From: Thermoplasmatota archaeon
GTDB lineage: Archaea > Thermoplasmatota > JAKEGO01
Length of the DNA: 64,000 nucleotides
Direction: 5' to 3'
Assembly (NCBI GenBank): GCA_028279595.1
Contig: JANQNK010000001.1
Location: forward strand, 128,001 to 192,000
Position numbers and translations under genes: made by a program. Shown here in pieces: positions 15,697 to 58,263 of this stretch. The notes under the pieces were generated by a model. That model made no database searches and had not been told where the DNA came from. It was given only the letters and a program-made list of their open reading frames with translations. Every line of letters starts with the position of its first letter. Within the stretch, counting starts at the first letter, position 1.

Positions 15697-15797
15697 AGCA
15701 AAATGCCCCGGTAGTGTCACGGGTGAAGTCCAAGGCCTTCACCCTGCTCGGGCGATCTGATCGCCCTCGAGCGACCTATCATCAGGCCTCGATGATA
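15697..15797 (+). repeat. Partial copy of the tRNA-Asp 5' end interrupted by a 52-nt double-hairpin insert (family A)
   Basis: AGCAaaATGCCCCGGTAGTGT[15718-15769]AGCGaCCTATCATC compared with the gene AGCAatATGCCCCGGTAGTGTAGCGGCCTATCATC. Confidence 0.85.
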
Positions 15798-15817: not shown

Positions 15818-15890
15818 GCCCCGGTAGTGTAGCGGCCTATCATCTCGGCCTGTCGAGCCGAGGACACGGATTCAAATTCCGTCCGGGGCG
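15818..15890 (+). tRNA. tRNA-Asp (GTC)
   Basis: Cloverleaf GCCCCGG...CCGGGGC-G; anticodon arm TCGGC-CT-GTC-GA-GCCGA; T loop TTCAAAT; CCA not encoded. Confidence 0.97.
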
Positions 15891-15915
15891 CTCTTCCTTC
15901 ATTTTACCTGTAGTC

Positions 15916-16007
15916 GCGCCCCGGACTCTCGTGAAGTTAATCCAACAGATTTCTGCCATTGATATTACAATGTGTACGGTCATAACCTTCACGATCCGTC
16001 CGGGGCG
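15916..16007. repeat. Palindrome with tRNA-Asp 3'-end arms around a TCGTGAAG/CTTCACGA stem (family C)
   Basis: GCGCCCCGGAC-TC-TCGTGAAG-(~50 nt AT-rich)-CTTCACGA-TCC-GTCCGGGGCG. Confidence 0.85.
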
Positions 16008-25062: not shown

Positions 25063-25117
25063 GCGGACCCGCGGGGATTCGCGCAGCAGATGCTTCGCAT
25101 CAGCGCGGTTCGCGAAC
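25063..25117 (-). repeat. Partial copy of the tRNA-Arg 3' end with a GATGC/GCATC hairpin at the T loop (family B)
   Basis: 19 nt (25063-25081) identical to 25210-25228, then hairpin GATGC-TTC-GCATC, then GGTTC and GCGAAC. Confidence 0.85.
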
Positions 25118-25210
25118 AGATTGAGAGATTATTGCCAGCCAGTTCACGAACAACCCTATTGGAGAGCGGGTTCTCAATCGCGGGACCTCTAATTTACGTA
25201 TGAAAATAGG

Positions 25211-25284
25211 CGGACCCGCGGGGATTCGAACCCCGGACATCCAGCTTAGAAGGCTGGCGCCCTATCCAGCTAGGCCACGGGCCC
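25211..25284 (-). tRNA. tRNA-Arg (TCT)
   Basis: GGGCCCG...CGGGTCC-G; anticodon arm CCAGC-CT-TCT-AA-GCTGG; GTTCGAATC. Confidence 0.97.
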
Positions 25285-35503: not shown

Positions 35504-35708
35504 GGTACTGACTTCCGGATCCGTGAAAAAGGCTGTGGTCCCGACTCCCGGATCGGTGAAAAAGGCTGCTGGATAAAATCGCGATTTTCACCGAGAGGGA
35601 GCCGCATCACGATATTCCTGAACATCGTCGAGGTGACAGCGACCGGATCCACGAAAAAGGGATTCGGAGACCTATAATTCTATTTCGTGGAGAGGGAGTT
35701 GGGACCAC
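35504..35708. repeat. Array of tRNA-Tyr 3'-end copies joined to GAAA/TTTC stems (family C; two full units and one partial)
   Basis: 19 nt (35535-35553) identical to 35733-35751; stems TCGGTGAAAA/TTTTCACCGA and TCCACGAAA/TTTCGTGGA, each followed by GA and an inverted tRNA end. Confidence 0.85.
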
Positions 35709-35733: not shown

Positions 35734-35840
35734 TGGTCCCGACTCCCGGATTTGAACCGGGGACCTGCCGGTCTCGGCAGCATGGCAGAGAGCCAATGGA
35801 TCTACAGCCGGCCGCTCTAGCCAGTCTGAGCTAAGTCGGG
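35734..35840 (-). tRNA. tRNA-Tyr (GTA) with 29-nt intron at 37/38 (35773-35801) and encoded CCA
   Basis: CCCGACT...AGTCGGG-A-CCA; GCCGG-CT-GTA-G[intron]A-CCGGC; GTTCAAATC. Confidence 0.93.
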
Positions 35841-56980: not shown

Positions 56981-57880
56981 ATGGACCTTCAGAAGCGAGG
57001 AGAGCGCATAGCGGCGGTCACCGCAGTATTCCTGATCTCGGTAGGTGTGCTTCAGATCGTCCTCGGTCAGACCATCTCCAAGAGCGTCGCGCTCACTGCC
57101 AATGGCATCGACTGTGTGGGCGACGGCTTCATCTCGTTCATCGTTTTCATCGGATTCCGGTATGTCCGGCGGCCGGCAGATCACAAGTACCATTTCGGTT
57201 ACTACAAGTTCGAGAGCGTGGCTTCGGTCGCTGCCGCCACGGTGATGGTGTTCCTGGCGGTCTACATCATATGGAGGTCCTACCTGCAGGTGCTCGATCC
57301 CCACGAGGTGGAGAACGTCGTGCTCGGAGCGTCCGTCGCCTATATCGCCGCTGCTGGAGCGATCGCACTAGGAGTGTACAAGTATCGGAATGCCAAGGCG
57401 ATGGAGCTGGGTTCCGCTCGACTGGAGGCGTTCAATACGGTCAAGGACGGAACGGCGTCGTTCCTGGCCGCAACCTCTCTCGTCATATCCAGCATGGGCT
57501 ATCCCATAGCCGACGCCATCGCGGGCTTCATCATCTCGATAATCCTGCTTTTCGTGGGTTTCACGGCGATGAAGGAAGCTGGATACATCCTCGTCGACGC
57601 CTGCGATTACAAGTGCATCGATTACAGTGCGGTCATCCGGAAAAGATTGTCAAAATACGAGGAGATCAGGGACAGGAAGGTCAGCCTTCGTCGGACGGGT
57701 CCTGTTTACATGGGCGAGATCATCATCGAGGTGGACGGGGAGATGACGATCGAGCACATCGACGGCCTGCGGGAGAAGGTCAGGAAGGACGCTGTCCGGG
57801 TGGTCCCCAACCTGGAGAGGCTGACCATCAGCGCCGTCCCTTTCGTTGAAAAGGACCCCGATGAAGAACCCGACCAGTAG
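56981..57880 (+). CDS. Cation diffusion facilitator family transporter
   Basis: SVAL.A..ID...D, RPAD..YHFGY.KFE, DAIAG; C-terminal dimerisation domain. Confidence 0.9.
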   Translation: MDLQKRGERIAAVTAVFLISVGVLQIVLGQTISKSVALTANGIDCVGDGFISFIVFIGFRYVRRPADHKYHFGYYKFESVASVAAATVMVFLAVYIIWRSYLQVLDPHEVENVVLGASVAYIAAAGAIALGVYKYRNAKAMELGSARLEAFNTVKDGTASFLAATSLVISSMGYPIADAIAGFIISIILLFVGFTAMKEAGYILVDACDYKCIDYSAVIRKRLSKYEEIRDRKVSLRRTGPVYMGEIIIEVDGEMTIEHIDGLREKVRKDAVRVVPNLERLTISAVPFVEKDPDEEPDQ

Positions 57881-57893
57881 GCGAGGGGAAGAT

Positions 57894-58087
57894 CGGGTGC
57901 CGGACCAGTGAAAAGTAATGTATTGACGAGAATCCTTTTCACTGGGCCAGTCGATCCCGCAGGATCGACGTAAATAAGCAGGAATCAGCACCATCCTTCG
58001 TGTCAACCTGGAATTGACGTAAGAAGGATGGTGCGGGTGCCGGGATTTGACCGTGATGATGCAAAGCATCATCCGGGTTCCTCAAAT
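57894..58087. repeat. Stacked palindromes containing tRNA-Gly 3'-end copies (family C stem 57905-57945; family B unit 58029-58087)
   Basis: CGGGTGCCGGA-CCAGTGAAAAG/CTTTTCACTGG; GTCGATCC/GGATCGAC; GCACCATCCTTC/GAAGGATGGTGC; 20 nt (58031-58050) identical to 58190-58209, then GATGATGC-AAA-GCATCATC and GGTTC. Confidence 0.85.
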
Positions 58088-58190
58088 GGCTGGCTGTTGC
58101 CGATAGCATTTGACGAACACCCTGTTCGAGAGCGGGTTCACATCCGCGACGCACTCCCACTCCAATGAGTGATCGTTGAAAATTGGGGAG

Positions 58191-58263
58191 TGCGGGTGCC
58201 GGGATTTGAACCCGAGTTATAAGCTTGGCAAGCTTAAGTGATACCAGGCTACACTACACCCGC
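58191..58263 (-). tRNA. tRNA-Gly (GCC)
   Basis: GCGGGTG...CACCCGC-A; anticodon arm TAAGC-TT-GCC-AA-GCTTA; GTTCAAATC. Confidence 0.96.

Follow-up and report, generated by a model that had tools for sequence, protein, structure and literature searches.

Genes for tRNAs are classic landing pads of viruses and islands, and to our knowledge every lodger of a tRNA gene brings its own integrase. Elements of this kind that use a tyrosine integrase, such as archaeal proviruses and islands, are marked by a direct repeat of the tRNA that starts in the T loop and extends through the 3' end, by a regenerated tRNA gene, by stacking in which the newest copy lies next to the tRNA, and by presence or absence with exact boundaries between relatives. 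Folded single-stranded sites are presented to recombinases by the attC sites of integrons and by the attP(+) site of CTX phage, the latter to XerCD. A further class of tRNA neighbor is the tRNA-linked repeat (TLR; Egan and Landy 1978, Rudd 1999) of E. coli, which stands behind tRNA or 5S rRNA genes in one to five copies per locus (PMC8144298). The last 18-19 bp of a TLR are the 3' end of the upstream gene, and the function of these repeats is largely unknown, three of them acting as Hfq/CsrA-binding sRNAs (PMC8144298).

In the present study, we analyzed 64,000 nucleotides (hereafter, "the window") from an uncultured Thermoplasmata archaeon whose assembly is 86% complete and whose likely source sample is a coral metagenome. 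Two tRNA genes of the window are each followed by a gene-less, strongly folding module of ~150 bases, which belongs to a family whose architecture is preserved precisely across phylum-level distances and whose members are tailored to their own tRNA in the direct as well as the inverted orientation. The closest known counterparts are the att duplications that integrases leave at tRNA genes and the E. coli TLRs. The former are defined by an element that carries its own integrase, whereas the module carries none. The module shares with tyrosine-integrase elements all of the properties listed above. Unlike them, it has no integrase or any other gene, measures ~150 bp as a whole, contains an inverted copy of the tRNA tail together with three covarying hairpins, places one body at at least 12 tRNAs, and showed no linked or co-occurring integrase in our searches. 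With TLRs it has its placement in common: directly downstream of a tRNA gene, ending in the 3' end of that tRNA, one to five per locus. TLRs are bacterial, however, and the inverted tail copy and the four-way hairpin body are features undescribed for them, as far as a comparison by description goes. In an incomplete survey of the literature, we found no prior description beyond the TLRs. The modules look like an undescribed kind of tiny site-specific insertion element.

An initial annotation of the window had singled out two stretches, 25063-25117 and 58029-58087, and its quotation of them matches the letters exactly. As it stated, both begin with a copy of the 3' end of their own tRNA that is joined at the T loop; the copies are exact over 19 and 20 nt. 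Both stretches sit just 3' of an intact tRNA gene on the minus strand, as called by ARAGORN (Table 1). Read on the tRNA strand, the order at both loci is the tRNA gene, 127 or 139 bp of non-coding sequence, and then the exact 19- or 20-nt tail copy; the insert as a whole measures 127-147 bp and contains no open reading frame. Alignment of three loci that carry the motif described below, and then of all copies, defines the unit as tRNA - S - X' - H1 - H2 - H3 - X. Here S is a T-rich spacer of 20-30 nt; X' is an inverted copy of the tRNA 3' region, which in this genome has a degenerate middle and a conserved terminal GAACC; H1 is a short hairpin; H2 has a stem of 10-13 bp; H3, of the GATGC type, has a stem of 8-9 bp and a three-base loop; and X is a direct copy of the tRNA from the T loop through the 3' end. 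What the initial annotation had flagged is thus the right-hand third of the module, namely X, H3 and half of H2. An Rfam 15 scan of the three motif loci (E <= 1) returned the genuine tRNAs only, with no match for the module, and ARAGORN called no tRNA inside it.

Table 1. Positions of the tRNA genes and module parts at the two window loci. The "distal arm" is a segment named in the initial annotation.
Feature	Position in window	Strand	Description	Support or remark
tRNA-Arg(TCT)	25209..25284	-	Intact	ARAGORN; Rfam tRNA, 66 bits; module directly 3'
S, Arg module	25188..25208	-	T-rich; loop of the hairpin formed by the tRNA 3' end and X'
X', Arg module	25169..25187	-	Inverted, partly degenerate copy, acceptor 3' strand through T loop; terminates in GAACC, the reverse complement of T-arm GGTTC	Pairs with X in folds
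H1, Arg module	25152..25172	-	AACCC ... GGGTT	Folds; helix 1 97.6% paired
H2, Arg module	25108..25151	-	10-bp stem, 24-nt loop; 3' strand 25108-25117 is the "distal arm"
H3, Arg module	25082..25107	-	GATGC-GAA-GCATC, core 25089-25101 plus flanking closing pairs
X, Arg module	25063..25081	-	Exact 19-nt direct copy, T-loop C56 to the tRNA-Arg 3' end
tRNA-Gly(GCC)	58190..58263	-	Intact	ARAGORN, Rfam
S, Gly module	58159..58189	-
X', Gly module	58135..58158	-	Inverted tRNA-Gly tail; complementary to the tRNA end and the first 4 nt of S
H1, Gly module	58119..58138	-		Folds, alignment
H2, Gly module	58077..58118	-	12-nt arms with one G.G mismatch; 3' strand 58077-58088 is the "distal arm"
H3, Gly module	58051..58076	-	GATGATGC-TTT-GCATCATC, core 58055-58073 plus closing pairs
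X, Gly module	58031..58050	-	Exact 20-nt direct copy, T-loop T55 to C74	Ancestral trailer follows

The initial annotation had described a GATGC-N3-GCATC hairpin shared by both stretches and had suggested looking for it near tRNA fragments. The pattern GATGC-N3-GCATC-N(2-10)-GGTTC has three matches in the 2.29-Mb genome, on one strand only, and each of them adjoins a tRNA gene, which for the third match is tRNA-Leu(TAA) on contig 7. Because the reversed control gave no match and all three are adjacent to tRNA genes, the motif exceeds chance. All three motif-bearing copies fold as one four-way junction with DNA as well as RNA parameters (z -2.5 to -5.4), in which a closing stem X':X bears H1, H2 and H3; in these folds, the closing stem resembles an acceptor stem with a free discriminator. 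Covariation was assessed in an alignment of 48 copies from 13 genomes, which was fitted to the covariance model's own structure and comprises related copies, so that its statistics overstate independence: the H1-H2-H3 structure is 93.7% paired, versus 65% in shuffled and at most 51% in slid controls, with double changes at 23 of 25 pairs, and H2 taken by itself is 94.4% paired, with double changes at 10 of 10 pairs. The GATGC-N3-GCATC hairpin is H3 and is genuine, being present both in the folds and in the alignment.

The structure into which the initial annotation had placed this hairpin is a different matter. It had proposed a single long stem, in which the T-loop copy pairs with a "distal arm" beyond the GATGC hairpin and leaves a conserved GTTC/GAAC bulged. 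Such complementarity can be seen in the two window copies, over 4 nt (Arg) and 6 nt (Gly); it arises because the family-conserved base of H2, GTTCG...CGAAC, resembles the T loop, a near-palindromic and near-universal sequence. The long stem is absent from all DNA and RNA minimum-energy folds of the three motif copies and from every centroid fold, and the two loci would need different registers to form it. On folding, the arm pairs with bases 24-30 nt further on instead of with the T-loop copy, and the resulting 10-12 bp hairpin, H2, uses it fully. Over the 48 copies, the two registers that we tested are 38% and 47% paired, which is the level of shuffled sequences (39-49%), with zero covariation. 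We therefore rejected this helix and give the single-stem reading almost no credence.

The broader claim that the element is matched to its target tRNA fares better. X is the tail of its own tRNA in every copy examined, including 30 of 30 copies in other genomes, which stand behind Gly, Leu, Ser, Ala, His and Arg tRNAs. For X', the mean score against the tail of its own tRNA is 6.23, versus 4.86 +/- 0.16 against other tails, and none of 2000 swaps reaches the own-tail value. In taxonomic families other than the window's, X' cleanly reproduces the T loop and the 3' strand of the T stem in inverted form; in the window's family, the best-kept part of X' is complementary to the acceptor end and to the first 2-11 bases of S. 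Individual copies point the same way: those on contig 7 carry in H1/X' the same unusual base pair as the T stem of their own tRNA, and those behind tRNA-His in G001, a genome of the window's family, have an X' that mirrors the unusual T loop of that tRNA. As far as can be judged from sequence, the tailoring of X' to its own tRNA is supported, so that the matching proposed at the outset holds, through X and X'. The arm that had been named for it is a strand of H2 and does no matching.

The spacer hairpin formed by the tRNA end and X' shows some variation of its own. Two modules in genome G019 that are otherwise 97% identical (L052 and L071) differ at 11 positions of its 19-nt loop, and the same loop differs by a 22-nt indel between G009 and G137; on these comparisons, the loop seems to be a hotspot of change.

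Copies were counted with a covariance model (R1) in this genome and in 151 genomes sampled across the phylum. This genome holds 16 copies, of which 15 lie behind 12 tRNA genes and one is an orphan in an integrase island; three of the occupied tRNAs (Lys, Cys and the contig-7 tRNA) carry tandem pairs, and in such arrays the distal tail copies are more decayed. All copies bar the island orphan lie on the same strand as the tRNA, directly behind it, and end in its own tail. The sequences have diverged widely: core identity among the copies of this genome has a median of 54% and a maximum of 68% between copies at different tRNAs. Among the 151 genomes, modules occur in 13, with a patchy distribution that is confined to five taxonomic families, namely the window's own, the sister of that family in the order, and three more. 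In metagenome contigs, the H1 pattern gave 10 matches, one of which is a real, though truncated, module. In viral contigs, the H3 hairpin sequence gave one unrelated match and the X'/H1 pattern gave 40, among which the covariance model recognized no module; we found no virus or plasmid copy.

Comparison with relatives provides the evidence that the module behaves as an insertion. G001 has a tRNA-Gly(GCC) without a module, which runs straight into a hairpin trailer homologous to the sequence that follows X here. Because the G001 trailer abuts the tRNA, the two genomes differ by one module and one tail copy, which this genome has and G001 lacks, and the boundaries are exact. At tRNA-Arg(TCT), G001 does carry a module; its X and X' follow the different acceptor stem of the G001 tRNA, and its body is ~50% identical to that in the window. 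In G019, the modules at tRNA-Gly(GCC) and tRNA-Gly(CCC) are 97% identical, each ends in the local tail, and X' is of the GCC type in both; judging from these sequences, either movement or conversion has evidently carried a finished unit from one tRNA-Gly locus to the other. A less clean case of presence and absence comes from a metagenome relative, which has a truncated module behind tRNA-Thr(TGT) that is absent here. Among metagenome contigs, the exact empty-site sequence for tRNA-Gly(GCC) had no match. Assembled contigs from the coral sample span the module and that of a sediment relative stops short of it, with no joint that skips the module, a result that is neutral on expression and excision.

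The boundaries of the repeat are informative in their own right. Identity with the tail ends at tRNA position 73-76, wherever each tRNA ends, and the repeat is 13-22 nt long without a fixed stagger (exact repeats are 19 and 20 nt at the window loci and 16-22 nt at other loci). The complementarity of X' runs 2-11 nt past the tRNA end into S, and S exists only at the upstream copy. These variable ends, together with the pairing of X' into S, suggest that the unit brings its own tail rather than producing a fixed-length target duplication. They also bear on the suggestion in the initial annotation that the elements arose by locus-specific fold-back synthesis: given the empty site in G001 and the ends at 73-76, X behaves as the displaced native tRNA end of an insertion, so that such synthesis is superfluous for X. 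Fold-back or templated correction may yet account for the way in which X' keeps its complementarity.

In a corrected form, this idea amounts to local palindromic duplication with no dedicated enzyme. Replication or repair accidents at highly transcribed tRNA genes, by snap-back at the self-complementary T-loop TTCGAA and template switching, would give rise to inverted and direct copies of the tRNA tail, and unequal crossing-over and gene conversion between tRNA loci would spread and stack the copies. The module does consist of nested inverted and direct T-arm copies (likeness to the T arm is seen in X', in the 3' strand of H1 and in the base of H2), the arms flanking the S loop match perfectly and continue past the tRNA into S, the stems are near-pure Watson-Crick, and no transposase was found. 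Independent accidents, however, would not yield an alignable H1-H2-H3 body with conserved junction bases and an H3 loop of three bases that recurs behind unrelated tRNAs in five families. The body (H2 and H3) is not derived from the local tRNA, and the 97%-identical modules at two tRNA genes show transfer of a finished unit. We consider local duplication improbable.

Ordinary islands in the same genome offer another point of comparison, as they give the same T-loop-to-3'-end type of repeat: that at tRNA-Pro(TGG) has a 17-nt repeat and spans ~14.5 kb, and that at tRNA-Arg(TCG) has a 14-nt repeat and spans ~5.3 kb. The latter (contig 14: 112203-117600, 5.3 kb) contains the orphan family-B copy and a module of a second type (see below) beside its right-hand attachment site, from which it follows that integrase islands can carry modules. 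Could the modules then be scars of such islands, i.e., attL and attR left behind after deletion of the interior? The shared repeat type and the hairpin modules beside the attachment site at tRNA-Arg(TCG) would be in keeping with that. Yet random deletions would not leave the same covarying architecture of 130-150 bp at 12 tRNAs and in five families, the arm beside the right-hand attachment site of the tRNA-Pro island is free of such hairpins, and the island integrases do not co-occur with the module. An origin as island scars appears highly improbable to us. As a separate observation, the integrase gene of the tRNA-Arg(TCG) island has an in-frame TAA stop.

Our leading explanation, which we put forward tentatively, is that each locus holds one gene-less integrative module of ~150 bp, docked on the T-loop-to-3'-end segment of the tRNA gene and recombined in trans, probably by way of folded DNA. 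The inserted unit would most likely be X - S - X' - H1 - H2 - H3. Such a unit would supply its own copy of the tRNA tail and leave the tRNA intact, and the native tail (the downstream X) would be pushed ~130-150 bp away along with the old trailer, as occurs with integrase-borne islands. Recombination would fall to a recombinase acting in trans, for which the tyrosine class is the candidate. The substrate may be the folded module, in which X' would pair with X and the first bases of S, so that a duplex version of the tRNA tail forms at the foot of the four-way junction. The near-pure Watson-Crick hairpins would then be a feature of the DNA, maintained through selection on the element or intrastrand templated correction.

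This picture recalls attC and CTX attP(+), where inverted arms ~100 nt apart likewise fold into a single-strand duplex mimic of the target and structure is conserved in place of sequence, as the in silico folds, the covariation and the match of X' to its own tail indicate for the module. Unlike in those systems, the target is a tRNA gene and no IntI gene is present, and the likeness is by analogy only. A bolder proposal is that the modules form a new class of mobile DNA, devoid of genes, with an attachment site that exists only in the folded state; a host or trans-acting recombinase would dock the ~150-nt unit on the matching tRNA gene by single-strand exchange, and intrastrand templated repair would keep X' matched. 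We regard this as unlikely, although, if it were true, one family could colonize many tRNAs in several archaeal lineages. Some points count against our leading explanation. The copies in this genome show no sign of recent movement, which is also compatible with a host function, and the explanation does not account for the tailoring of one family to at least 12 tRNAs, in X as well as X'.

The search for a mobilizing enzyme was largely negative. In this 86%-complete genome, we found no IS110 DEDD transposase, reverse transcriptase, IS200/605 TnpA, Cas1 or TnpB, the one exception being a sub-threshold zinc-ribbon match inside a 738-aa ORF. A search for a viral Rep gave no match in the genome, but it gave none in any control genome either, so this null carries no weight. 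Self-BLAST of all ORFs revealed no IS-like multicopy family. At this level of completeness, little can be concluded from the absence of an enzyme gene. Tyrosine recombinases are the only recombinase or transposase class found: there are seven genes, none of them linked to modules. One is Xer-like, the XerA-like gene on contig 3 (20801-21631), and the other six lie within islands or next to them, at tRNA-Pro, Arg(TCG), Trp and two tRNA-Leu genes. The largest island integrase family was rejected as the mobilizer, since it has homologues in families without the module and a search of module-positive genomes gave none. The remote module copies have no integrase within 1.5 kb on either side. A tRNA-Trp gene on contig 19 (196576-196747) with a 96-nt intron, which is missed by the default scan, adjoins the 3' end of an island integrase gene.

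The same results separate the module from other small repeats. Like MITEs and REP/BIME elements, it is short, gene-less, hairpin-rich, multicopy and intergenic. Unlike them, it targets tRNA ends strictly, and its own ends copy the target, with X' and X differing by tRNA, in place of family-constant inverted repeats. It further differs from MITEs in that it has no fixed-length target duplication and that no cognate transposase (IS200/605, IS110, TnpB) was found in this incomplete genome. We also dropped a C/D-box sRNA, a BHB-bounded intron, a retroelement primer-binding site and IS91/HUH nick sites as candidates, for which the defining motifs or enzymes are missing.

A quite different possibility is that the module acts as RNA, either as a small structured RNA gene or as a processing unit of the tRNA transcript, which would make it an archaeal counterpart of the E. 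coli TLRs. Its transcription would either continue from the tRNA or start at a promoter in the AT-rich spacer, and the closing stem would signal RNase P, RNase Z or CCA addition. The 18-19 bp of 3' identity in TLRs, three of which are processed sRNAs (PMC8144298), lend this some appeal. So do the identical strand and position of every copy that stands behind a tRNA, the mimicry of an acceptor stem with free discriminator in the closing stem, and the preservation of structure at ~54% sequence identity. Several features of the module fit an RNA poorly, however. There is no Rfam family match; the stem sequences of H2 and H3 vary freely, and no conserved single-stranded functional motif is present in the two window copies; and insertion accounts better than a needed RNA for truncated or decayed copies, for tandem stacking and for the empty site of a close relative. 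In addition, S carries T runs, and T runs should stop archaeal transcription directly behind the tRNA.

The composition of the stems is also relevant here. G.T makes up 1.4% of module stem cells, about one third of the 4.5% for G.U in the acceptor and T stems of this genome's tRNAs, and the pairing is otherwise near-pure Watson-Crick. The ratio of G.T to A.C is 16:7 in the module stems, A.C mismatches thus being present, versus 22:0 in tRNA stems; the same 16 and 7 are the figures that bear on strand use in comparison with attC and CTX attP. The P values for stem composition are indicative only, as the copies are not independent. Read in this way, the composition favors a structure at the level of DNA over RNA, and we hold the RNA reading to be doubtful. 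The persistence of hairpins in old copies needs selection or templated correction of the palindrome arms. Because the copies are old and yet the structure is kept, a host function stays alive as a reading next to the integrative module that we prefer.

What the modules would mean depends on which of these readings applies. If they are mobile, they would constitute a minimal docking unit, possibly with a folded-DNA attachment site in archaea, and would help to understand why tRNA genes turn into integration hotspots; they might also serve as targeting cassettes of very small size. If they are instead RNA or a DNA structure that serves the host, they would be a component of archaeal tRNA loci that has gone unrecognized, and the counterpart of the E. 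coli TLRs, which have long lacked an explanation. On the practical side, modules break assemblies and run the risk of being misread as tRNA fragments, introns or split tRNAs. An example of the former is seen in this genome, where the end of contig 1 (238932-238992) and the end of contig 15 (45029-45153) overlap inside one family-B copy behind tRNA-Ser(CGA); as both contigs end within one copy, the module family breaks the assembly.

Some further observations concern sequence boxes and other repeats at the tRNA loci. In about half of the copies (e.g., L057, L072, L063 and L015), the H2 loop ends on its 3' side in a box near TGACGA, which also occurs at the end of the spacer just before X'. H2 of both window copies is without it. 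The reverse complement, CGTCAAT, appears in loops of the second module type, and on these sequence grounds the TGACGA-like box may be a candidate protein recognition site. A module of this second type, with three hairpins, follows immediately on X of the Gly module in the window (57880-58030, minus strand). In its first hairpin, the ACCA end of the tRNA pairs ~25 nt further on, with the CGTCAAT box in the loop, and its third hairpin ends in another partial tail copy. The second type is found behind many tRNAs of this genome and directly behind tRNA-Gly in G001.

At least 17 of the 42 tRNA genes have a nearby copy of their 3' end, which implies that family B is one of several module families in the genome, and four have upstream copies of their 5' end. 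One of the tRNAs concerned is the window's tRNA-Asp (15818-15891), with 13-nt copies of both of its ends, that of the 5' end ~113 nt upstream (15705-15717) and that of the 3' end 103 nt downstream (15995-16007). Copies of 5' ends are also found at Lys(CTT), Arg(CCT) and Leu(TAG) on other contigs, with the promoter region co-duplicated at Lys(CTT) and Arg(CCT). Finally, an 18-nt copy of the 3' end of tRNA-Glu(CTC) lies at 35536-35553, 180 nt downstream of the gene and behind an insert that is not of family B; the tRNA-Glu(CTC) gene itself (35734-35825) is called at 92 nt, which is long for a tRNA.
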